This document shows positions 3,001-43,722 of a stretch of 64,000 bases of DNA, one piece after another. The notes beneath the pieces are model-generated. The model saw only the letters and a program-made list of their open reading frames with translations, was not told where the DNA came from and ran no database searches. The position numbers and the translations under genes are program-made. The stretch's first letter is position 1. Each line of letters starts with the position of its first letter. The DNA comes from a virus, in UHGV virus genome UHGV-0306641, one strand, 5' to 3'.

Positions 3001-4892
3001 CGCGCAACGAAGTTACGAAGGAGGAATCCGAATATAACAGCTGGGCGGAGAAACACGGTAAGAAAAGCGCTGATGTTTATCACGGTTCGTCACGACGCAA
3101 TGCCCGGACCATGCTGAAATATCAGATTGAGAAACTAACCGATCTGAAAGGCCAGGTTAAAACAGCTCGTAATACCCTGACGCGCAATAAAAACGCCGCC
3201 ACGATGTTGAAGCGCGCCAAAGGTGATCTGGAGCGTAGTATTGCTGCTGGTGTGATCGACATTGACCCGGATGTGTTGCTGAATCCGTCAAACTACATGA
3301 AAACGAATAGCGGTCGAGTGTTAAAAACCGACGCTTATTACACCATCAATACTGATACCTCACAGCAAGTGATTGTGCGCATTACTCGACTGTTACCGGA
3401 AAAACAGACGGTAGAAACTGAAATCACTTACACCTCAGTTTATCCGTACTCTACGTATCGCATCGGATCGAAGAGAGAAATGCCGGTGAGCGATATTATC
3501 AACCAGGTTGATGTTTCACTGGATACGGTAGAGGCAAGACGTCGGGCTGCTGAAGGCCTTACACCAGACAAGGTTGCCAGCATCCTTACCCGCGCGCAGT
3601 TTTACGATGCAGTGACGGAGAACGTCTTACGCGTGAGGGACGATTACTGGATGGCATACAATGACGGCAAGCTTGAGCTGGTCTATATCTTGCGTGGAGC
3701 GTTGCCGGATGATATCGCGCCAACGTCTTATGTTTACCCGGACAGTAGTGATGATGGCCTAAAACGTGCGCTGTTTGCATATAGCCGCAGCGGTTCGAAT
3801 ATGTATTCAGCAAGGCTCTTTTTCATTGCCGTGTTTGGTGAAAACTACACCGCTGAGCTGGAGGCCTTTGGCGAGCAGGGGACCGTAGAGGATGTATTGC
3901 CGGTGCTCAATGAATCAATCGCTAAGGCTGAGGCCATGTACAACGATTCACTGGCTGGAGCGTCTGATAGCGACATTCGCGCCCAGTTTAACGGCAACCA
4001 TGAGTCTGTCAGGGCTATGTGGAAACACCGAGTTTCAACGTCATCCCTATCTCAGCTACATGAGAAATTCTCAAATAAGAGTCAGCTGCAAAACATGTTC
4101 CTTCAACTGCGTGATGAGCGCCTGGTGGCAAAGCTGCAGGTCATGAAAGAGGGCAATGCAAAGTTAGCGCAAAAACTGTATGAGCAATTCTCTCGCCTGA
4201 GTGGTGCGCGGTCGCTGAAAGTAATCCGTGATCTGGCTGACTCATCCGTAGCCGACTTAATTAAACAGGTGAATAGCCATGATTCACTTCTGACGTCATC
4301 CCTCGCTGATTACCTTATGGCTGGGGTGCTGGTGGGGGCGTACTCCGAAAGCCGTATATCGGTAGAGGATTTCCTTAACGTTGATGTGGTACGCCGCCAC
4401 ATTGAAGGAATTAAATATAAATTACAGGAGATTAAATCCGGGCAATTTGAGCAATTTGCTTCATCATGGGAGGGCTATCTCTCTATGATGGCAGGAGAAA
4501 AAACCGTTGAAGAGATCGAAGCCGAAAAGCAGGAGCGGGAGGCAAAACAGGCGGAAGCAATTGAGTTTACCCAAGAGCAAACGGACGAGAAAGACTTCGG
4601 TTACAGCATTCAACAAAACTCTTTAAATCTGGAAGGAAAGCGCGTCTGGCGTCGTAGAACGTTCAAACTCAGCTATCCGGCTGGTGGCGCGCACGTTCTG
4701 TGTGATACGTCGGGACGGGCCACGCTCAAGAAAAAATCCGTGCGGGAAATGCTAAAAGAGAAATACGGTGCGACGTTCTGGAACTTTGAAGACGATCCGG
4801 TTGAAGGTAACGAGTTTACCCAGCCAGCATGGGTAGTCTCAAGCCGGTACGACAAAGCCGAAATCCAAGCCAGCATACAGGCCATCATTTAA
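1..4892 (+). CDS. Giant SNF2/DEAH helicase-domain protein, DarB-like (5' end lies outside the window; frame is open back to position 1)
   Basis: Walker A GFGTGLGKTTTAL, motif II DEGHNY, SNF2 motif III LLTATPLVNSPLD, C-terminal helicase motif QRNGRGARVG; continuous >1620 aa ORF; architecture resembles the helicase half of P1 DarB (from memory). Confidence 0.7.
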   Translation, partial: QNFVRQMELINARRKAAPIDKIKVNLNARWLDRRLIKEFLAEQGYDAFRYTKDLEVENGYLVSADDYEGKDGIFTGYQLRTVTSNSGVTEFKKANNSDGFLNQLENYLNGVKPRGPKAGEYLSRIAKLEGSFNDWLRSHPDVEGVVNDYNDAFNNYIPFEHSSESLHLEGLSGKRIPLSYQNSEVRRLSEDGRGIMGFGTGLGKTTTALALEAFNYQHGRSKRTVFVVPKAVYHNWYHEARDFYSPEVFAQMLFVGIDEVRGEDGEIQTSQVRNENNEPMTDRDGNPVMRNVIKDADSATILERMNRIPASNFRSVIMTKEQFGMIPLREETIEENSAQALYNAIDMGRTDLLKSSHRAELAKNKIKDKAADTGTAKKHQVPYFEDMNFDNVIADEGHNYRNSLAAGRETAQLAYLPNPAVSQIARDMAVKSAYLMKKFNGRGVTLLTATPLVNSPLDAFNMLSHVVPVEEWKAMGILTPDDFVRVFGETANVVVQKISGEVVDKQGLVGFKNLDGLRGIFHRWTTLKTAQDVKESVKIPDLNEINVDVPLTQEQVDIYEELRQRAAKIGQKDVIERNEDGTISITPNNNDDFIFSVIRDMDKLVIDPDLYRSSMTFIFPEDQREKVMAIAAGLPAAAGGVEADDDESDTGLVSTLSSKVVETKVGTRGDAVELVVSVDLEAAVLQAIAKEGIDMKTVTHPIPPKYAALIANLKAGLVNGKQIIFMDEKSQHGKLRRILSHALGMDESQIGIINATSVQQATGVKLKKVKKPVEPTEKADGTYKDGAWEKYYSELAKYEDYISALNDMSLTGMEGIAADYNEGRTPIVICNKKAEVGINLHKGTTDIHHLTLPWTPASINQRNGRGARVGSSQDSVNVHYYCGIGSFDEFRLGTLKRKGNWIGEIMTSDASTLKNGDMDENDDIQLLLAANQDERKARLEAQLAARREAERRKAEKEAEVALDVYLRSSIAANEDPTALADNLNDLTAQLSTQEEAVEEARNEVTKEESEYNSWAEKHGKKSADVYHGSSRRNARTMLKYQIEKLTDLKGQVKTARNTLTRNKNAATMLKRAKGDLERSIAAGVIDIDPDVLLNPSNYMKTNSGRVLKTDAYYTINTDTSQQVIVRITRLLPEKQTVETEITYTSVYPYSTYRIGSKREMPVSDIINQVDVSLDTVEARRRAAEGLTPDKVASILTRAQFYDAVTENVLRVRDDYWMAYNDGKLELVYILRGALPDDIAPTSYVYPDSSDDGLKRALFAYSRSGSNMYSARLFFIAVFGENYTAELEAFGEQGTVEDVLPVLNESIAKAEAMYNDSLAGASDSDIRAQFNGNHESVRAMWKHRVSTSSLSQLHEKFSNKSQLQNMFLQLRDERLVAKLQVMKEGNAKLAQKLYEQFSRLSGARSLKVIRDLADSSVADLIKQVNSHDSLLTSSLADYLMAGVLVGAYSESRISVEDFLNVDVVRRHIEGIKYKLQEIKSGQFEQFASSWEGYLSMMAGEKTVEEIEAEKQEREAKQAEAIEFTQEQTDEKDFGYSIQQNSLNLEGKRVWRRRTFKLSYPAGGAHVLCDTSGRATLKKKSVREMLKEKYGATFWNFEDDPVEGNEFTQPAWVVSSRYDKAEIQASIQAII

Positions 4893-7430: not shown

Positions 7431-8741
7431 TTGAATATAATGTCTAATGCCGCAGAACAACTCACCACTCCTACCCGCATCACCGATGAGGTACTTCACC
7501 TGTCCTTTGTCGGCGTCTATAACCAGCTGAATCTGACATTACGCCGTATCAGCGGCGACGACCTCGACCGGCGCGCGTTGGAAACCAGCATCAGCATGAT
7601 CGAGCAGTTGCAGAGTGACGTTAACACGCGTCTGGATGATGAAACCAACGACTGTAACGCCCTTATTGAACAGCTTGAGGCAACGAAAAACCAGCTACTG
7701 GGGATGAACCTGTACAAAGTAGAGGTACAGGAAGAGGCGCTGGCTAAAGAAGACGAGCTGGAGGGGTTACGTCATGACGCCAAAATGAAGGCGCTTGAGC
7801 TGGAAAACGCAATTATTAATTTAAAGAGCCAGATTGAGTCATCAGCACAGGAATTAACAACGATGCAGCTGGCCTACAATTCATTGAAAGCGTCCTTTGA
7901 TACCTATAAGCGCTTACATCCAGAATCCATTCTCCGTGAGCGTGACGATCTGACAAAGCAAGTCTCCAGGTTGCGAGCAGAGCGCAAAGAAACAAATAAG
8001 AGACTTCAAACCATGCAGAGTAAGCTGAATATTGCCGACAAGGAAGTTGCTGCAGCCCGTTCTAGCCTGATCACCAAGCGTCAGGATATGGACCGGCTTC
8101 ATGCTTTGCATGAGAACCTGAAAAAGCGGGTGGATTTTCACGACGGTCGCGAACAAGTGAAGCTGCATACAGTTGTTACTGAGCAAGGGACTGAGCTTAA
8201 CCTGTATATCTACAACTTCCACTTTGGCCTTTTGGCGCGCAATAGCTACATAAAGGGGCATGTTATTGAACTGGCTGATTTTCATTTCCAGATCCGTACA
8301 GCCATGATGGTTGCGATGGACGTGGTGCCTGGTGTGTGGGGAAACCCTATCTACGAACGTCTGAGCGTATTTAAAAATGCTTGGGATTCTGCGATAGACG
8401 AAGAATTACATCAGCGGATCATGGTCCGGTTAGAAATGGACTTCCCGAAAATCCACAAGCGCGCACTGGATGCCATCGCAGCTGGCATTGACGAACTGAC
8501 ATTACCGGCAAAGGTGCTCTCAATCCTGAAAGGTGCTGGATTTAAGAACGTGCAGGCCATAGCGTCCGTACTACCGTTTGAGCTGGTGGATATTAAGGGG
8601 ATTGGAGAACAGACAGCGACGGAAATCACTAACGCGATAAATAGCTGGGCTATTCGCTGGTCGCGCGAGAATTGCGACATTGAGGCATACAAATCGAATG
8701 TGATCAGCAGCGCTAAACCAGCAAAAAGTAAGAGAAAATAA
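7431..8741 (+). CDS. coiled-coil protein with C-terminal helix-hairpin-helix motif (436 aa; TTG at 7431 or ATG at 7440)
   Basis: long heptad-rich N-terminus; C-terminal LVDIKGIGEQTATEI HhH-like motif. Confidence 0.65.
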   Translation: MNIMSNAAEQLTTPTRITDEVLHLSFVGVYNQLNLTLRRISGDDLDRRALETSISMIEQLQSDVNTRLDDETNDCNALIEQLEATKNQLLGMNLYKVEVQEEALAKEDELEGLRHDAKMKALELENAIINLKSQIESSAQELTTMQLAYNSLKASFDTYKRLHPESILRERDDLTKQVSRLRAERKETNKRLQTMQSKLNIADKEVAAARSSLITKRQDMDRLHALHENLKKRVDFHDGREQVKLHTVVTEQGTELNLYIYNFHFGLLARNSYIKGHVIELADFHFQIRTAMMVAMDVVPGVWGNPIYERLSVFKNAWDSAIDEELHQRIMVRLEMDFPKIHKRALDAIAAGIDELTLPAKVLSILKGAGFKNVQAIASVLPFELVDIKGIGEQTATEITNAINSWAIRWSRENCDIEAYKSNVISSAKPAKSKRK

Positions 8742-11197: not shown

Positions 11198-12427
11198 ATG
11201 GCAAAGATTGACTGGGATTGGCACAGGGAAAATTATAAAAAACATAAACTTGAGTCAGGTGTGACTTACAAGGAGTATGCCGAATACCATTCCTTAAACC
11301 CGAATACCGCACGCCGCGAACTGAGTAAAAAGGTGGGTGATGAGGGGCAGGCACCCACGGTCCCGTCGCGTGATCAGGATGATGATCTAACCATCAGGAG
11401 AAAGGGGAGAAAACTCAAGCATAGCAGTGCCTTAGAGGAAATTACCGGGCAGGGTGAACCCGGCGAAACACGCGCAGGCACGAAAAATAAAAAAAATAAT
11501 TCCAAAGGCACACGCGCCAAAATGATCAAACCAGTGCATGAGGGGGAAGTGATCCCACATGTACCGAAACAACGAGGTAAGGGTAAGCAATTCGAAACCG
11601 GCAACGAGGTGAATGTTGTCGCGAATACCAGAGGAAAGCCACGCGAGGTTGATCGTGATGCTGCTGTCTCATTGTTGGAAGCTGGCCTGGAAGAATGCGA
11701 GGCATCCACAGTTAAAACAGCTGTCGAGCATATGCAGCTGTTGTCGCGAACCACAGCCAGGGCAGTAGAGCTATTCGAAACTGAAATAGCCAATATGAAT
11801 ATCCCACGAGAAAAGGGTGACAAGGATGGTGATGACGATGCTCCGTCCGGGCCACACCCGCTGTTAAAGCTGACAAAACTCCTGATTGAAGTCGGCTACA
11901 GGATGGATGACCACGCTACCCGTATCAGTTCTATCCGTTCCTCACGAGAAAAGCTCAAGATTGACCGTGAAAAGCTGGGCGCAAAAGCGACCGAAGCACA
12001 GGTTATTGCCACCGCCTACCAGCTGCGTGATGAAAACGACTGGGATATAGCAGAAACCGCTGAGTACATCGAGCGTCATGGGGTAAAACTGCCGGATTCA
12101 ATCGCCTTGAGGCTGGCTAAGGAGATCAAGGAAGCAGAACCGCCAGTTAGTGACGTCAACGCTGTAGATGATGACCAACTGGAAGAAGAGGCCCGTAAAT
12201 ATCGTGAAGCGCAGGCCGGTAAAGAAGCCTTCCTGAAAGAGCGCCGGGAAACTATCGCCAGGATTGTAGACGAGGGCGGGTATGGCGATACGAACCATGA
12301 CGGTATCAGGCGCGAAGGGGAGCTAGACCCGGATGAAGAGGGCTTAGATCTCGATTACGAAGCGACCCGCGAGTTATACGGCGAAGGCGATGAGATCGCG
12401 ATAGCGCCCCCGGATGAGGACGAATAA
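11198..12427 (+). CDS. pacA: terminase small subunit PacA homolog
   Basis: N-terminus DWDWHRENY...SLNPNTARR and C-terminus IARIVDEGGYGD plus acidic tail align with P1 PacA (from memory); stop overlaps pacB start (TAATG). Confidence 0.8.
   Translation: MAKIDWDWHRENYKKHKLESGVTYKEYAEYHSLNPNTARRELSKKVGDEGQAPTVPSRDQDDDLTIRRKGRKLKHSSALEEITGQGEPGETRAGTKNKKNNSKGTRAKMIKPVHEGEVIPHVPKQRGKGKQFETGNEVNVVANTRGKPREVDRDAAVSLLEAGLEECEASTVKTAVEHMQLLSRTTARAVELFETEIANMNIPREKGDKDGDDDAPSGPHPLLKLTKLLIEVGYRMDDHATRISSIRSSREKLKIDREKLGAKATEAQVIATAYQLRDENDWDIAETAEYIERHGVKLPDSIALRLAKEIKEAEPPVSDVNAVDDDQLEEEARKYREAQAGKEAFLKERRETIARIVDEGGYGDTNHDGIRREGELDPDEEGLDLDYEATRELYGEGDEIAIAPPDEDE
11372..11655 (+). repeat. scattered TGATC(A/G/C/T) hexamers inside 5' part of pacA, at the position homologous to P1 pac
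   Basis: TGATCA 11372, TGATCT 11384, TGATCA 11523, TGATCC 11550, TGATCG 11650; the SRDQDDD coding segment aligns with the P1 PacA segment that encodes pac. Confidence 0.4.
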
Positions 12428-13938
12428 TGGCATCCGGGAAGAAGAAAATTAAATGTGTAACCTCTGATCCGCGCTGGCGTGAAATGGCTATCCGCTATCG
12501 CCATGACTGGGGGTTAGCGGTCGTTGAATTGTTCGGAATGCAACCGAGCTGGCAGCAGGATGAAATACTGCAGTCTGTCCAGCAGATAAAGAGCATGACA
12601 ACCGTTACTTCGGGGCATGGTACTGGTAAGTCATCCCTGACAGCCATGATGCTGATGATTTACATGATCCTGTACCCGGATGCGCGCGTCGTCATCATCG
12701 CGAACAAGATTGCGCAGGTAAAATCCGGCGTATTCAAGTACGTGAAAACCTTTTGGGCCAACGCCGTAAAACGTCATCCGTGGCTGCAGAACCACTTTGT
12801 TTTAACCGACACCATGTTTTATGAGAGAAGCCGGAAAGGGGTGTGGGAAGTTCTCTGTAAAGGCTATCGTCTGGGTAATGAGGAAGGGCTGGCAGGGGAA
12901 CACTCCAAACACTTACTGATCATCTTGGATGAGGCGTCCGGTATCTCTGATAAGGCGATCGGCATCCTGACCGGTGCGCTGACGGAAGCTGATAACCGCA
13001 TGCTTATGCTGTCCCAGCCAACGCGCCCGTCTGGTTACTTCTACGACTCTCACCACAGCCTGGCGAAGACTGAACATAACCCTAAAGGGATCTGGACGTC
13101 GATTGTCCTCAACTCTGAGGAATCACCGTTTGTAACAGACGACTTTATTGTCATGAAGCTGGCGGAATATGGCGGTCGTGACAGCATGGAATACAAAATC
13201 AAGGTACTGGGCCAGTTCCCGTCCGTGATTGATGGCTTCCTGTTGGGCCGCGATGCCTGTGAGCGCGCCCAGCGTCGTAAAGTGTACCTTGAGAAAAACT
13301 GGGGCTGGGTGGCGCTGGCTGACGTTGGGAACGGTCGTGACAAATCCGTCCTGAACATTATGAAGGTAAGCGGCTATCGTGAGAAACGTCGGTTCGTTCC
13401 GTTCGTTGTGCTTGAAATGCCGGGTACCATGAACCCTACAGAGTTCGGTGACTTTATTGCGAACGAATGTACTCAGGAGCGGTTCCCCAATATCACTATA
13501 GGCGTGGATAGTGACGGCGTAGGCTCAGCTACTGCCGATCAGCTGGAGCGCAGGGGGGTTAACGTTGTCCGTATCCGCTGGGGTAAACCTATGTTCGCCA
13601 AAACAGATAAGGACCGATTCGTAAGCCAGAGAGCCTATGCCAACATCGCAGCTCGTGACGCCATACAGACGGGACGTATGAGGCTGGACTCATCGCCAAA
13701 GACAGCAGAACAGGCTTCAAAGATACCTTGGAAGATAAACGAAGATGGGCGTGTGGCGATGATGAAAAAGGATTACATGCGGCAGAAGATGAATATCAAG
13801 TCGCCAGACCGTTGGGATACGTACTGTTTTTCAACGCTTATATCGTATCGCCCTGCAAATGATGACCTGGGTGGAGACATGGAAGAAACCCGCGCAGATG
13901 CACTGGCAGAACTGTCGAAATATGACGATGTGATTTAA
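12427..13938 (+). CDS. pacB: terminase large subunit PacB homolog
   Basis: Walker A SGHGTGKS, Walker B LLIILDEASG, C-terminal nuclease-like region; immediately follows pacA. Confidence 0.85.
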   Translation: MASGKKKIKCVTSDPRWREMAIRYRHDWGLAVVELFGMQPSWQQDEILQSVQQIKSMTTVTSGHGTGKSSLTAMMLMIYMILYPDARVVIIANKIAQVKSGVFKYVKTFWANAVKRHPWLQNHFVLTDTMFYERSRKGVWEVLCKGYRLGNEEGLAGEHSKHLLIILDEASGISDKAIGILTGALTEADNRMLMLSQPTRPSGYFYDSHHSLAKTEHNPKGIWTSIVLNSEESPFVTDDFIVMKLAEYGGRDSMEYKIKVLGQFPSVIDGFLLGRDACERAQRRKVYLEKNWGWVALADVGNGRDKSVLNIMKVSGYREKRRFVPFVVLEMPGTMNPTEFGDFIANECTQERFPNITIGVDSDGVGSATADQLERRGVNVVRIRWGKPMFAKTDKDRFVSQRAYANIAARDAIQTGRMRLDSSPKTAEQASKIPWKINEDGRVAMMKKDYMRQKMNIKSPDRWDTYCFSTLISYRPANDDLGGDMEETRADALAELSKYDDVI

Positions 13939-19617: not shown

Positions 19618-20059
19618 ATTTCCCTACCAGATCAAATAGCAATAAATATGCTTGCCCTCATATCTGGCGAGATAGGTTATAGGACTTTCCGCAATAACAG
19701 TAATTTTTTACGCAATAATCTTTAACGCAACAGCACCTGCCGAGCGCCATGTGACTATCTAATCCGCTCTACGACTTGTCGCACCCTGATTTGACATTGA
19801 ATTCTAAGGATTTACTTTATGTTTACTTGCTAATAACTGAGGGCAGTAAGCATGTTAGGGTAAAAACTCATTTGCTCACCTGCCCCCATGGAAAATAAAA
19901 TAGCAGCACGGTAACAATTACAAACGAGAGGAATATATGAAAATTAAAATCAAGCTTATTATCTTTACTTTCAAAATAAACTTACATATTGAGAGATTAT
20001 GCAATTAAATAAAAATGGGGGATTCGACCAGATGTGTCCTCCCCTATAGTTTCCGTATC

Positions 20060-20557
20060 CTACTTGTAGTAGTAGGCTATATTCATTGCCTTATAGAGTT
20101 CCTTAAATCTTTCTTCTCTATATAACGAAAGCCATTCCGTCCAATTACTTATTACGATCTTCCAGAGTGGTGAATCAAACAATGCAGATTGAGCCGGTAA
20201 TTGCTCTCCTGGTTGGAGGTATACCGCCTCAATCATTCTTACACAGCGTCCAAAATCATCAGGGTCAAGAGGGTAGGCAAATTCCGCCTCACAGCCTCCT
20301 GTCAATATGGATGCCATATATAGACTGCTAGCCCCAACATCATCACTGGCAAGCCATGCCTCCAGCCCTATTCCCTCCTTGCCTACTCCCTTCAGGACTA
20401 CAGCTGGCTTACGAGCGTACTCCGCCACAATTAAGTTCGCCGCTCCTATTATCGTGCTGTAACGGTTATCTGCAGTGAGGCCTGGAATCTGGCGGCACAG
20501 CTCCGTAGAAATGGCATTTATCAAAGCAATCTGATCTATCTGGTAGGTTTCGCTCAT
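20060..20557 (-). CDS. hypothetical protein (165 aa; start at MSETYQ with AGGAAG RBS)
   Basis: internal ATG with good RBS; longer track ORF overlaps upstream gene. Confidence 0.55.
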   Translation of the reverse strand: MSETYQIDQIALINAISTELCRQIPGLTADNRYSTIIGAANLIVAEYARKPAVVLKGVGKEGIGLEAWLASDDVGASSLYMASILTGGCEAEFAYPLDPDDFGRCVRMIEAVYLQPGEQLPAQSALFDSPLWKIVISNWTEWLSLYREERFKELYKAMNIAYYYK

Positions 20558-20579
20558 TGCTGTCTTCCTTGTAATGGAT

Positions 20580-21020
20580 TCAGGCGACCTGGTGGCAGGT
20601 AACGCCCATAGAACGGATAGCGGCGCACACGTCCGGGTTATCATCGAACGCGCACAAAATGTTTTCGGTGCCGATGTTCCTGATCCAGTCACGCTTAATT
20701 TCAGCTGGTGGGCGGTGCTCTTTCTCCCCACGCATAATCAGGCGGTCATAAGGGATCTGGTATCGTGATAACCAAGCAGCTGTTTCCGCATAGGCCACCT
20801 CTCCCCGGCTTGTAAGAATGAAAATCCTGTAATGTCTGCTCAGTGCCACCAGCAACGCGATATTCGCCATGATGGGAGTATCTTTCTCACACGCCAGGCT
20901 AAAACGGTCCCAGTTCGGCGCGTGGCTCATCATGTCCAGGCGAGGAATGAGATCCTCACGGTGGCGGTGGTCAGCCAACGTATTGTCCAGGTCAAACACC
21001 ACGATATCTGCAGTGGTCAC
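20580..21020 (-). CDS. HAD-superfamily phosphatase (nucleotidase-like), GTG start
   Basis: motif I FDLDNTL (DxDxT), AGGAG RBS. Confidence 0.65.
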   Translation of the reverse strand: MTTADIVVFDLDNTLADHRHREDLIPRLDMMSHAPNWDRFSLACEKDTPIMANIALLVALSRHYRIFILTSRGEVAYAETAAWLSRYQIPYDRLIMRGEKEHRPPAEIKRDWIRNIGTENILCAFDDNPDVCAAIRSMGVTCHQVA

Positions 21021-21158
21021 AAAAACACTCCTGTCATTCGTAAGTGAACAATAATAATCAATATGATTCTAAGGTATTTGTATTTATCGAATGGATAAAT
21101 TACAGCATTCCGTTTTATACTCTGAGAATACCATTAAATCTAAGGGTTTTTAAAAGGG

Positions 21159-21833
21159 TTGTTCATGCTTAGTACAGAGGATCGGGATGCACTCTACGAA
21201 AAACAGCGAATCGCAGCGCAACGGCAGCGCGAACGTCAGAAGACCAAGCTGGCTGACCCAGCTTATCGGCAACATCAACAGGAAAAACGGCAGGCGGCAG
21301 CACAACGATCCGCCGAAAAACGATTAGCCCGTATCCGTTCACCGGAGTATCAGGAAGCGCAGCGTGAAAAACAGCGCATTAAGCGACAGGAAACAGCACA
21401 GAAACCACGTACAGCACTTACCGTTACCAAAACCCGTAAAACCTCAACGCGAGGACTGAAAGGCAGAACCCCGACCGCAGACGAACGGCGCGTAATGAAT
21501 GCGTTAGCCAAACTCCCCTGCACCGCTTGCTGGCTGCATAAACACCACCAGCCAATTGTCAGCCTGCATCATGTAAATGGGCGCACTGCAGCTGGCGCGC
21601 ATATGGATGTTTTACCGTTGTGCCGGTGGCATCACCAGGACGCGGCCCCAAAAGCAGATCGCGAGCAATACCCGTGGCTGGTGCCGGTTCATGCCAGCGG
21701 CAATGTTGGCGGAAAGGCCGAATTTACGCGCCTGAACGCCTCCGAAGAAGATTTGCTACTCATGGCCTACGAACAGGCTGGAATAATCAGAGAGGTACAT
21801 GGTGTGCCACTCGTAAAAAGGAACGAACAATAA
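21159..21833 (+). CDS. Ref-like HNH endonuclease with basic disordered N-terminus
   Basis: CTACWLHKHHQ...LHHVNGR...PLCRWHHQ HNH/zinc motif; basic repeat-rich N-terminal 100 aa as in P1 Ref (from memory). Confidence 0.65.
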   Translation: MFMLSTEDRDALYEKQRIAAQRQRERQKTKLADPAYRQHQQEKRQAAAQRSAEKRLARIRSPEYQEAQREKQRIKRQETAQKPRTALTVTKTRKTSTRGLKGRTPTADERRVMNALAKLPCTACWLHKHHQPIVSLHHVNGRTAAGAHMDVLPLCRWHHQDAAPKADREQYPWLVPVHASGNVGGKAEFTRLNASEEDLLLMAYEQAGIIREVHGVPLVKRNEQ

Positions 21834-22621
21834 TGAGAATAAAACATTGCGCCACATCTGATCCACGTTGGGTGGAGCTGGTAGAGAAATATCAGAGTAA
21901 CTGGAATCAAGCGATGATAGACATCTTTGGTATGACACCTACAGATCAGCAAAAACTGGTGATAGAAAGAGCAAGCAAACCGGGTTCACATACAACGGTA
22001 ACAACCCCTAGTGGAATTGGTTGTAAACACCTCATAAGTGCTATTGCCATTCTCCTCGTAATTCTTTATCCCAATGGGCGAGTTATCATCCCATCAATGG
22101 ACGTTGCCGCCACCAAAAGCCAAATAATGAAGTACATGAAGCAACATTGGTATAAAGCGATTCAAAATCATCCATGGCTTGATATTTACTTTGACCTAAC
22201 GAGCAACGGAATCCATGAACGAAGCACCGACCGCCTTTGGTTTAGCAGTTTTAAAAGCGTCAGAAAGTATCCAGAAAGCATAGCTGGTGAATATGCCAAA
22301 CATCTGTTTTTCATTTGCCCTAATGCCAATAGCTTATCCGAAAAGATAATGGGAATTATCAATGCCTCATTGGTTGAAAGGGACAATGGAATACTGCTCA
22401 CAGGAATACCATCAGAACACCGTACTTACTTTTATCATAGCCACCATAGGCTATCAGGGGATCTATATTCAGCGATTCAATTGAGTGCCGAAGATTCTCC
22501 ACTCGTAACGCCGGAATACATAGAGATGAAAAGACGTGAACTTGGAGGACGCGACACAAACGCTTATCGGATGCAGGTCCTGGGCCTTTTCCCAAACGAA
22601 TCATCCACCAGCGATATATAG
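21833..22621 (+). CDS. degenerate paralog of terminase large-subunit N-terminal ATPase domain (mat-position gene)
   Basis: colinear with PacB residues 1-265 (SDPRW, FGM.P..QQ, YP..RV.I, HPWL, HSHH, K..VLG.FP) but Walker A becomes PSGIGCKH and Walker B LFFICPNANS; no nuclease domain; TAATG overlap with the preceding HNH gene. Confidence 0.7.
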   Translation: MRIKHCATSDPRWVELVEKYQSNWNQAMIDIFGMTPTDQQKLVIERASKPGSHTTVTTPSGIGCKHLISAIAILLVILYPNGRVIIPSMDVAATKSQIMKYMKQHWYKAIQNHPWLDIYFDLTSNGIHERSTDRLWFSSFKSVRKYPESIAGEYAKHLFFICPNANSLSEKIMGIINASLVERDNGILLTGIPSEHRTYFYHSHHRLSGDLYSAIQLSAEDSPLVTPEYIEMKRRELGGRDTNAYRMQVLGLFPNESSTSDI

Positions 22622-22629
22622 GTGTAACA

Positions 22630-22860
22630 GTGACAAGAACAGCAACGGAACGGGCCTTAAATCCCCACGGACACGTATATATACTGGATGGATTAACCAA
22701 ACTCCATATTTGTAAGATTTGCGGAACCTGTGAGCGCCGGAACGGACAATATTGGTGGGCTGGTAAGTGGAGTAAGACAGAGCCGCCGTGCGGCCTCAAC
22801 ACAGATGGACAACGGGACTGGCATAACAATGCAAACCCTGACAACGAAGACGAACCATGA
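22630..22860 (+). CDS. small Cys-rich protein (GTG start)
   Basis: HICKICGTCERR...PPCG zinc-ribbon-like. Confidence 0.35.
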   Translation: MTRTATERALNPHGHVYILDGLTKLHICKICGTCERRNGQYWWAGKWSKTEPPCGLNTDGQRDWHNNANPDNEDEP

Positions 22861-22903
22861 CCGGCTGCAGGACGATAAATAATTCCTTGACGCAAAAAAA
22901 ACA

Positions 22904-22925
22904 CAAAGTACAAACCGCATAAAAT
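22904..22925 (+). promoter_or_regulatory. conserved 19-bp element CAAAGTACAAACCGCATAA + CATAAA(-10-like), class II late-promoter candidate
   Basis: identical 19-mer also at 52615; CTCGCAGC box follows. Confidence 0.45.
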
Positions 22926-23013
22926 CCTCGCAGCTTTTGTGTTCCCTTGAGGGTACTTTTGACAATTTAACTTCCTGCTTTAGCGCGGTTGGGAACATCA
23001 ATAGCCAGTAAGG

Positions 23014-23035
23014 GGCCGCAATCGCGGCCTTTTTG
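23014..23035 (+). terminator. Rho-independent terminator/attenuator hairpin in leader
   Basis: GGCCGC-aatc-GCGGCC then T5. Confidence 0.6.
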
Positions 23036-23054
23036 CTTTCTGGAGGATAGAAAA

Positions 23055-23714
23055 TTGAGTCAAAAAATAGCTGTTTTCAGTCTCTCAACATCAACCCCGC
23101 TCTATGTCACCGCCATCTATAACGATGACAACAACCTGATAATGAGCACCCCGAAATCACTTCCCAACTCATTAAAACAACAACGAGTAAAGGTGATCCC
23201 CGCCGTCGAGAAGTTACTTAAAGCTGACTTTAAGGTGCTGGTGGATGAAACCAGTGGGACCATTGCGAGCGAAAGTGGCGCTCACCATGTTTCACTGAAG
23301 ACGCGACATACAGACTCGCGCGCTGCAGTTTTGGTCGGCATCGAGCGTTACAACGAATTGCGCCTCCAGAAAGCCATTTCTCTTCCAGAGAAAAACCCCG
23401 GCGCATATGAGATCCCGTCTTCTATCGTGGACATTGATTACAACGCCGCCGGTGACGAGGTATATCACATCAACTGGCAGGATATTCGACCCGAGCACCT
23501 GCTTACGATCATGTGCTGTTTTGCCACGGTATACCATCCTGTTACTTCTGCTGCGTATATCAAAGCCATGACCGGCTGCAGCGAAGAACGCGAGCAGCAC
23601 CCGCTATTACGCGTTTTCGGGAATCTCATTAAGCATCAGGAAGTGACCAGTGCAAACGCCGTACCGCCATCGCTAACCGGGAAGCGAATCAGTGATAACG
23701 AGGTCATTCTATGA
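23055..23714 (+). CDS. hypothetical protein (TTG start after GGAGGA RBS; alt ATG 23142)
   Basis: track ORF start at 22989 rejected because terminator hairpin lies inside it. Confidence 0.45.
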   Translation: MSQKIAVFSLSTSTPLYVTAIYNDDNNLIMSTPKSLPNSLKQQRVKVIPAVEKLLKADFKVLVDETSGTIASESGAHHVSLKTRHTDSRAAVLVGIERYNELRLQKAISLPEKNPGAYEIPSSIVDIDYNAAGDEVYHINWQDIRPEHLLTIMCCFATVYHPVTSAAYIKAMTGCSEEREQHPLLRVFGNLIKHQEVTSANAVPPSLTGKRISDNEVIL

Positions 23715-24040
23715 GTTACAACCGCCTGGATGACCGCACAATTGACGATCCTATCCTGCTGGCATTGTTTCATCAGGAAGTCATTGCACGGGCCACCAGC
23801 TACAGCGCCGACAACATCTCTTACACCATCAAGCCCGATGAGGTTTACCGTTCTGATTTGTCGGCGTTTCGCTGTTACGGCAATGAAGAATTACGCTGGG
23901 TATTCCGCCTGCTGGTGGGGCATGAATCTGAAACTGAAGCCATGCCGGTTGGCACAACGTTAACCGTGCCGCCGGTGGCCTGGATACGTGACCGGATGCG
24001 CGACTATGCGTCGGGAACGGTGGAGTTAATCAGTGGCTGA
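23711..24040 (+). CDS. hypothetical protein (109 aa)
   Basis: ATGA-coupled to neighbours. Confidence 0.55.
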   Translation: MSYNRLDDRTIDDPILLALFHQEVIARATSYSADNISYTIKPDEVYRSDLSAFRCYGNEELRWVFRLLVGHESETEAMPVGTTLTVPPVAWIRDRMRDYASGTVELISG

Positions 24041-42822: not shown

Positions 42823-43722
42823 TTATTTATCCTCTCCGCAGCCACACCAGTAATGCTTATTTCCAGCACAACGTAATACATGGGCATTTCTGCCGCATCG
42901 AGGGCAACTGATTAATTCGCCTTCGGACTGTATTTCTTCACGAGTTGGTGTAGCTTCTTTCTGAGGGTCCGCCAGAAAAGCAAGGCACATACTGGCCCAG
43001 GTATCTTTAGCGTAATCTGATGCCTCGATATCCTTGCGTGAAGTAACTCGCCATTGTCCATTCTCGTTCAATCGTCGGAATATTTTGGTACCGATATTTT
43101 CGATCTCAGGTACGTGTTTAAGGCAAAGACGGCGCTGCAGTAACGCCTCCCCTGCAGCTATGTTGGCATAGGCCCATGGATTAAAATAACGCGTCGAACG
43201 CAACCCATCAGCTTCCGGTCTTGCCATAGATACGCGCTGCGGTTTCACTCCTGACCTCTCAAGTACCTCAGCCAAATGCCTGCCCAACCCCTCTTCCGCA
43301 ATAACAACATGCCAGACATTTTGTTTAATCCGGGACAGTACCTCTTCTTCGGTCAGATGCTCACCAATATCAACCACAATAAAGCGTCTTTCGTTCATTT
43401 CTCCAGATACGCGGAAAAGAGAAAAGTTGATACCTGAAAGGCTACTGCTATAGCTACAGCAAGCTACTAGCTGTGAAGTAGCCCAATCAAAATTGACCAC
43501 GGATGTATTGCTCTGCTTTGCCTTGTTAAGTTCAGTTTCGGTGTATAACGGCATCCATAAATTATCTGAGCCGCACGGTACCACTCCACTCTTTATTAAT
43601 GTGCTGCTTAATTTTGCTCTCAGTTGCTGTGTATTCTGGTATTTAATTGCTGTATCAAATAGTGCGTTTACCAGGTCCCGATAAAGATGCGGTGGTAACG
43701 GGTATAAGTCTGAGTTAGGCAT
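42823..43722 (-). CDS. hypothetical protein with C-terminal Cys4 zinc ribbon (299 aa)
   Basis: CPRCGRNAHVLRCAGNKHYWCGCG. Confidence 0.6.
   Translation of the reverse strand: MPNSDLYPLPPHLYRDLVNALFDTAIKYQNTQQLRAKLSSTLIKSGVVPCGSDNLWMPLYTETELNKAKQSNTSVVNFDWATSQLVACCSYSSSLSGINFSLFRVSGEMNERRFIVVDIGEHLTEEEVLSRIKQNVWHVVIAEEGLGRHLAEVLERSGVKPQRVSMARPEADGLRSTRYFNPWAYANIAAGEALLQRRLCLKHVPEIENIGTKIFRRLNENGQWRVTSRKDIEASDYAKDTWASMCLAFLADPQKEATPTREEIQSEGELISCPRCGRNAHVLRCAGNKHYWCGCGEDK

Follow-up and report, generated by a model that had tools for sequence, protein, structure and literature searches.

We analysed a stretch of 64,000 nucleotides from the virus genome UHGV-0306641, referred to as the window in the following. 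The window comes from a D6-like phage-plasmid of the P1 family. The open reading frame (ORF) 21833-22621, here called X, encodes a protein that corresponds to the ATPase domain of PacB, the large subunit (TerL) of the phage's own terminase, and that has lost the catalytic residues of this domain. X is located between ref and orf76, a short distance upstream of mat and apart from the pacAB operon. It is almost certainly a functional, dead TerL-domain paralog. The genes on which the following text relies are:

11198-12427, plus strand: pacA, pac-recognition subunit (phrog_1711 terminase, E 3e-93), with a conserved N-terminal helix-turn-helix and a conserved C-terminal motif
12427-13938, plus strand: pacB, functional terminase large subunit with intact SGHGTGKS, LDEASG and SQPTR motifs and a nuclease domain (73.6% identity to phage D6 PacB, approximately 57% to PacBs of the P1 group)
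21165-21833, plus strand: ref, Ref-family RecA-dependent HNH nuclease and first gene of its operon (PF16786, E 2e-34; phrog_2321, E 2e-66)
21833-22621, plus strand: X, 262 amino acids, paralog of the ATPase domain of PacB (TerL) that stands alone and is catalytically dead (BLASTP, AlphaFold2, motif loss and substitution rates)
22630-22860, plus strand: orf76, small Cys-rich (zinc-ribbon-like) protein (phrog_7369)
23055-23714, plus strand: mat, homolog of the maturation control protein Mat (52% identity to D6 Mat, 35% to P1/P7 Mat), unrelated to X

A second partial PacB paralog, ORF 42823-43722, is called Y. L-numbers denote compared loci and P-numbers denote representative proteins.

X and the ATPase domain of PacB

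Residues 6-255 of X align colinearly with residues 10-266 of the PacB of the window (BLASTP, 100 of 257 identities or 39%, E 2e-66), and the identity is 39-40% to the PacBs of the window, D6 and P1 alike. According to tblastn, the window holds exactly two PacB N-domain-like copies, pacB and X, which lie approximately 8 kb apart. A sequence-only reading of this DNA had proposed the colinearity from a series of shared motifs (SDPRW, FGM.P..QQ, YP..RV.I, HPWL, HSHH and LG.FP), all of which fall within the BLASTP alignment.

The enzymatic hallmarks of a TerL are a Walker A motif with its lysine (SGHGTGK[ST]), a Walker B aspartate followed by the catalytic glutamate (hhhhDE), the coupling (C) motif SQPT(R) and a C-terminal RNase H-like nuclease domain. 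X lacks each of them. In Walker A, SGHGTGKS aligns to TPSGIGCK; the string quoted in the sequence-only reading, PSGIGCKH, is one residue off register, but the conclusion drawn from it stands, since the P-loop lysine is replaced by cysteine. The corresponding GK[ST] is kept in 124 out of 124 live representatives, i.e., those with both Walker motifs in the search described below. Walker B is lost exactly as had been claimed, with LFFICPNANS opposite LLIILDEASG, while SQPTR has changed to GIPSE and DNR to DNG. The nuclease domain had been reported missing, and this is confirmed: the ORF ends at the boundary of the ATPase domain, and tblastn with the PacB C-domain detects no remnant of a nuclease domain downstream. 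What X does keep is the homology to the TerL N-domain and the predicted ASCE ATPase fold. X is a TerL homolog devoid of every enzymatic hallmark, that is, a pseudoenzyme derivative and not a terminase.

Neither X nor its relatives match a Pfam family. A profile search of the PDB sequences with X gave no match either, and it was fold comparison alone that led to matches. An AlphaFold2 model of X, built from nine relatives, has a mean predicted local distance difference test (pLDDT) score of 91.3 and a predicted template modelling (pTM) score of 0.90. In a Foldseek search of the PDB, the top matches of this model are all large-terminase ATPase domains, namely Sf6 gp2 (E 2e-9), P74-26, T4 gp17 (template modelling (TM) score 0.71), D6E and HK97, and among the viral models in BFVD it matches TerLs with TM scores of up to 0.82. 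From this model, X is predicted to fold as a terminase ATPase domain. A lack of such structural similarity had been named beforehand as an argument against the paralogy; similarity was found.

X as an accessory gene between ref and orf76

The arrangement around X is further described by three features:

21092-21145, plus strand: site resembling a promoter (TGGATA-18-TATACT) and, after it, the repeated motif CCATTAAATCTAAGG, immediately upstream of ref (consensus match no better than chance level)
21796-22638, no strand: single-gene indel segment, present in X carriers, in place of which X-less sister plasmids have 16 bp (blastn against L002 and junction alignments)
23010-23043, plus strand: terminator-like hairpin with a T-run, which closes the ref-X-orf76 unit before mat (sequence)

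The pacAB genes of the window are found at approximately 95.5% nucleotide identity in seven complete Citrobacter plasmids of 84-95 kb. Two of these otherwise near-identical phage-plasmids carry X and five do not. In the X-less plasmids the ATG of orf76 overlaps the stop codon of ref (TAATG), which indicates translational coupling, and X is thus a single-gene cassette set exactly between two translationally coupled genes. In the window, ref, X and orf76 have the same orientation. The start of X overlaps the stop of ref (TAATG at 21831-21835), as had been observed before, and an AGGA Shine-Dalgarno sequence is located 10 nt upstream of this start. The G+C content (GC) of X is 0.428, and 0.411 at third codon positions (GC3), versus 0.50-0.54 (GC3 0.50-0.63) for ref, pacB, mat and the tail genes. 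This low GC points to an acquisition of X from elsewhere.

Fifteen close variants of X (at least 95% identity) are known from Citrobacter freundii, one E. coli draft genome and metagenomes, and the context is identical in all of them. A search of 5,426 complete E. coli genomes did not find X, nor did a DNA-level search of the phage collection. In comparisons of the window with three carriers, X shows a synonymous divergence (dS) of 0.095-0.115, similar to its flanks. The ratio of nonsynonymous to synonymous divergence (dN/dS) is 0.09-0.14 for X, 0.11-0.14 for ref and 0.08-0.13 for mat. A ratio equal to that of ref and mat indicates purifying selection on a working protein. On this ratio and on the deep conservation reported below, a pseudogene is rejected.

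The gene upstream of X had been described as Ref-like and proves to be a true ref. It scores above the curated cut-off of RecA_dep_nuc (PF16786), its product is predicted to be a nuclease, and its counterpart in NZ_CP114569 is annotated as Ref family. X had been described as paired with it. A functional pair of X and Ref is rejected because Ref occurs with or without X in the sister plasmids and relatives of X elsewhere occur without Ref and adjoin unrelated genes. A pairing of X with orf76 was discarded as well, since orf76-like genes are found near X in two lineages only and are also present without X. An orf76 homolog of 53% identity (L019 7441-7701) occurs two genes upstream of P0016, a relative of X, and none is found beside the other X relatives; in L002, orf76 is located at 4303-4524.

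The sequence-only reading had also placed X at the mat position and had considered it as the actual nature of Mat-type proteins. Both ideas are abandoned here: the window has a mat gene apart from X, which is located between it and ref; in L001 and L002 the counterparts of this mat gene are annotated as maturation control protein, and X and the Mat homolog of the window give no alignment better than E 4.

Several observations concern the surroundings of the unit. Upstream of ref and divergent from it (20060-21020, minus strand), a PNKP-like HAD phosphatase (phrog_415) and a protein of 163 amino acids are encoded; the latter is approximately 78% identical to its sister-plasmid counterpart and thus far more diverged than its neighbours. 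The spacer between ref and mat is variable: the window has positions 22852-22895 where the X-less sisters have a different segment of 459 bp (L002 4525-4983), which holds two small annotated antisense ORFs. A HigB/HigA toxin-antitoxin pair is located downstream of the tail gene at 25.2-26 kb, according to the sister-plasmid annotation. A plasmid search with positions 20500-23100 matched more than 100 large, mostly conjugative Klebsiella plasmids, which cover 42% of the query in two pieces at approximately 96% identity. These matches lie in query positions 671-2601, equivalent to 21170-23100 of the window, and are annotated as Ref and hypothetical proteins. No Rfam family was found within 20000-24000. 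A P1-type C1 operator was found neither upstream of ref, nor elsewhere in the window, nor upstream of the X relative in L010. Repeats similar to CCATTAAATCTAAGG occur at 8 sites in the window versus 1.8 expected, namely at 21131-21145, 5691 (minus strand), 7408, 8937 (minus strand), 29197, 29307, 41174 (minus strand) and 52580. Four of them are located 20-110 nt upstream of ORFs on the same strand, ref included, and CCATTAAATCTAAGG is a candidate operator or phage-specific promoter element.

Relatives of X and the nuclease-half paralog Y

A word-indexed protein search returned few relatives of X, and 1.84 billion representative proteins had to be searched exhaustively with HMMER. From this search we consider the 138 listed matches that span the whole ATPase domain. 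Both Walker motifs are kept in 124 of these, and 116 of the 124 also have the nuclease domain. Ten listed matches lack both Walker motifs, and nine of the ten stop at the domain boundary with a length of 252-270 amino acids. The loss of the Walker motifs is associated with the loss of the nuclease domain (Fisher p 8e-9). In P0016 (L019 8001-9335) and P0022, the nuclease domain is replaced by unrelated C-terminal extensions of 185 and 104 amino acids, respectively, for which no Pfam match was found. Many PacB-like terminase representatives, among them P0042, P0060, P0072, P0074, P0077, P0080, P0108, P0127, P0142, P0152, P0162 and others, carry large insertions inside the Walker A P-loop (SGHGC...HNTGK[ST]), which are apparently inteins.

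In a bootstrapped neighbour-joining tree of the N-domains, the dead proteins fall into two clades. Clade A (X, P0016, P0017, P0019, P0020, P0022, P0024, P0039 and P0165) has 99% support and is nested among PacBs of the P1/D6 type, while clade B (P0067, P0121 and P0166) has 100% support and adjoins a different PacB-like group. The two clades never group together. Dead PacB N-domains arose twice independently. Within clade A the mutual identity is 33-46%, with length and fold maintained. As this is about equal to the distance from live PacBs, the clade must be old.

Where the context of an X relative is known, it is P1/D6-like phage-plasmid DNA, with differing loci and no constant neighbour; one further clade member was identified in the Citrobacter plasmid NZ_CP145667 (L016). 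The loci are:

L010: P0019, alone, approximately 2.5 kb upstream of parM-pacA-pacB-c1-cre
L013: X relative after a radical-SAM gene
L014: X relative among small ORFs near a TerB gene
L016, 4183-5783 (NZ_CP145667): X relative whose start overlaps the dam stop, downstream of rdgC and a second methyltransferase-like gene
L019: P0016, near an orf76-like gene and ref

The elements with a dead paralog also have normal pacAB genes. In L010, a strong terminator-like hairpin (7960-7989, CCCCGC...GCGGGG followed by T8) lies approximately 20 nt before the start codon of P0019, too close for P0019 to have a separate promoter. A tRNA-like 3' string in the 880-bp spacer upstream of P0019 was not called by ARAGORN. 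As Dam methylation controls pac cleavage in P1, the adjacency of the L016 paralog to dam may or may not matter. A look for P0020 in viral contigs found nothing, a scan of genome contigs gave live PacBs only, and the backbone of L019 has no match in PLSDB. In the databases, X-type genes are labelled 'hypothetical protein' and in one case 'Terminase large subunit'. The paralog relationship had been presented as apparently undescribed; in agreement with this, full-text literature searches yielded no description of a family of dead PacB or TerL paralogs.

In three elements that have both genes, the identity between the X proteins is approximately 40%, versus 58-65% between the PacBs of the same elements. 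The PacB of the same element is no more similar to X than foreign PacBs are, and a co-evolution of the two, for which these three cognate sets give no signal, was dismissed.

We compared nine clade A proteins with fifteen live PacBs residue by residue. Conserved in the live PacBs and lost in the dead clade are S-G-H-.-T-.-K-S of Walker A, D-E of Walker B, LAGEH, DNR and SQPTR; judged by sequence motif, each of these positions is a catalytic, coupling or nucleotide-handling residue. Dead and live proteins share a further 35 conserved structural or surface positions, which concentrate in the N-terminal helices (D10, R12, Y20, G33, Q39 and Q40) and in the C-terminal lid and linker (F200, H205, E220-S-P-.-V, G238-G239, Y245, G251 and F253). 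W13, L16, W24, A27, F32, L36 and T37 in the N-terminal part are even better conserved in the dead clade than in live PacBs. We read this pattern as that of protein-protein surfaces which the dead clade probably retains without catalysis. A candidate binding partner for both PacB and X is PacA, whose C-terminus is kept between elements.

The other half of PacB has a paralog in the window as well:

42823-43722, minus strand: Y, nuclease domain only, 299 amino acids, with a C-terminal zinc ribbon (sequence similarity)

Residues 79-250 of Y align with residues 305-471 of PacB, which belong to the nuclease domain (26% identity, E 4e-12), and the sole matches of Y in the phage collection are pacB C-domains. 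The AlphaFold2 prediction of Y has a pLDDT of 37, so that Y is putatively assigned from its sequence similarity. In the alignment, the first catalytic Asp motif ADVG is changed to CSYS, and VDSDG to IAEEG. Y also looks catalytically degenerate. Five of the seven sister plasmids carry Y, and its presence does not depend on that of X. A split pseudo-terminase formed by X and Y was rejected, as the two do not co-occur and Y is present in X-less plasmids.

Proposed packaging interference, alternatives and known systems

X is a folded, selected, non-catalytic 'pseudo-terminase', a mobile accessory cargo from an old family in variable regions of P1/D6-like phage-plasmids. Concerning its role, we favour, with a probability of roughly 0.35 and by analogy to known packaging inhibitors, that X is a non-catalytic PacB mimic which would compete for a partner and interfere with packaging. 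The PacB surfaces kept in X would be the N-terminal helices (DPRW...W...LFG..LT.QQ) and the C-terminal lid (FYxSHH / AEDSPLV / YGGRD..YR), and the partner for which X would compete with a PacB may be the pac-recognition subunit PacA or the portal. Complexes containing X would neither cut pac nor translocate DNA. X would then be a trans-dominant packaging-interference factor, most plausibly directed against rival P1-like elements in the same cell. This proposal draws on the homology and the predicted fold, the selective loss of catalytic and coupling residues, the purifying selection and the length-conserved, twice-evolved family. The patchy presence, the varying loci, the low GC and an evolution faster than that of PacB are behaviour of the conflict type, and Y, as a degenerate nuclease-like half-paralog in the same element, fits the theme of mimicry. 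TerL motors are oligomeric and are poisoned by inactive subunits, and Ppi of staphylococcal pathogenicity islands (SaPIs) and Rpp of phage-inducible chromosomal islands (PICIs) show that packaging interference is a real strategy.

Some facts weigh against packaging interference. As X is equally similar to its own and to foreign PacBs, nothing points to one particular partner, nor is it obvious how the element would exempt its own packaging. Furthermore, X is co-transcribed with ref, and a relative in another element follows dam. In P1, ref and dam are both repressor-controlled lytic-phase genes, so that X would be present at the very time when its own element has to package. X matches no defence model in PADLOC-DB, and neither do eight relatives or orf76. 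Finally, the loss of ATP-site residues is equally expected under relaxed constraint or immune evasion. A wider proposal, which we consider doubtful, is that P1/D6-like phage-plasmids trade dead single-domain mimics of both terminase halves, X for the ATPase and Y for the nuclease, as conflict factors, i.e., as trans-dominant poisons of rival packaging motors or as antagonist decoys for the immune sensors Avs1-3 and Upx. If true, pseudo-terminases would represent a type of viral pseudoenzyme weapon that is new and has evolved at least twice.

No protein of tailed phages is more conserved than the large terminase, and it ranks among the main targets of innate immunity in bacteria (Avs1-3, Upx). 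X, and Y likewise, could serve as an immune decoy, made early and occupying the TerL sensors Avs1-3 and Upx without triggering them, or, in a variant, dead active sites could make a useful TerL-like protein invisible to ATP-bridged recognition; this is the main alternative, although we consider such a role unlikely. A decoy or anti-defence role had also been suggested in the sequence-only reading, as had a packaging regulator. It is known that the ATPase domain and the nuclease domain of TerL are the patterns sensed by Avs1-3 and Upx, that EcAvs2 recognises the TerL ATPase domain via a Walker-bound ATP and a bridging ATP, and that T4 vs.8, a stand-alone TerL-ATPase paralog with intact Walker motifs, activates EcAvs2, and the authors of that study suggest that vs.8-type proteins may be anti-defence factors (PMC13601566). 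This ATP-mediated sensing and the activation by vs.8 speak for a decoy, and so do the loss of exactly the ATP-binding residues in X and of the nuclease catalytic Asp in Y, the patchy distribution, and the location of X next to likely counter-defence or early genes (the PNKP-like phosphatase and ref). On the other hand, binding to the sensor itself activates Avs and Upx, so that a binder is more likely an agonist. Recognition by Upx is moreover independent of catalytic residues (PMC13601566), so that X might trigger Upx, and no anti-defence homology of X is known.

Rather improbable is a role of X in regulating the packaging of its own element, where it would be a non-cutting stand-in for PacB that holds PacA-pac complexes inactive, either preventing a suicidal pac cleavage of the plasmid prophage or timing the onset of headful packaging. 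The surface motifs of PacB retained in X at both ends would suit this role. The same can be said of the place of X in the ref operon and of one relative directly after dam, of the Dam control of P1 pac cleavage, and of the PacA C-terminus conserved between elements. However, X is dispensable, as it is missing from five of the seven plasmids that share pacAB (95.5% identity), D6, P1 and P7 have no X-type gene, and X shows no cognate-specific similarity to its own PacB.

Slightly less probable again is a neofunctionalised scaffold outside packaging, e.g., an accessory of DNA metabolism together with functions of the Ref, Dam and RdgC type, for which the ASCE fold would provide a binding platform. 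Two elements have neighbours concerned with DNA transactions, i.e., ref in the window and rdgC-methylase-dam in L016, in two proteins (P0016 and P0022) the dead domain is continued by an unrelated C-terminal extension, and some positions are conserved in the dead clade only. Yet the neighbours are inconsistent across elements, and the most conserved residues of X are those shared with PacB.

Least of all do we expect a decaying, functionless remnant of a duplicated or recombined pacB: the loss of catalytic motifs and nuclease domain and the patchy distribution would be in accordance with decay, but the dN/dS of 0.09-0.14 is the same as that of the neighbouring functional genes, at least ten lineages with only 33-46% identity have preserved an intact ORF of conserved length, X ends precisely at the domain boundary, it has a Shine-Dalgarno sequence and start-stop coupling, and its fold is predicted with confidence.

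Conserved, dead, domain-sized terminase copies that are carried as optional cargo suggest terminase mimicry by phages and phage-plasmids, with one another or host sensors as the likely targets. X would offer a natural dominant-negative or decoy reagent for studies of P1-type pacase assembly (PacA-PacB-portal contacts), of inter-phage competition and of terminase sensing. It also corrects an annotation trap, as genes labelled 'hypothetical' or 'Terminase large subunit' are dead paralogs and not Mat.

Among known systems, X resembles the PacB of P1 and D6 by homology over the whole ATPase domain, with the same predicted fold and the same N-terminal and lid motifs. It differs from PacB in the loss of the Walker A Lys, the Walker B Asp-Glu, SQPTR and the nuclease domain, and it is an accessory, not an essential gene, outside the pacAB operon. 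With P1 Mat, X shares the neighbourhood only, being located just upstream of mat; Mat is a separate conserved gene without sequence similarity to X. In sheep and mouse, enJS56A1 Gag and Fv1/Fv4 are trans-dominant defective viral subunits of resident elements that poison related incoming viruses. By analogy, X may share with them the concept of a defective copy of an assembly protein, although those systems are eukaryotic and retroviral. SaPI Ppi and PICI Rpp would share the proposed mode of action, in which packaging is blocked or redirected by a protein without enzymatic activity that binds to a component of the terminase (PMC6739421). They target the small terminase subunit TerS, are not TerL homologs and are borne by satellites, whereas X is carried by the phage-plasmid itself. 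The nearest described case is vs.8 of T4 (PMC13601566): both vs.8 and X are single-domain paralogs of the TerL ATPase of their own phage, are encoded apart from the terminase operon and are limited to one phage lineage. According to its description, however, vs.8 keeps Walker A and Walker B and activates EcAvs2, whereas X, a descendant of the PacB lineage, retains neither motif.

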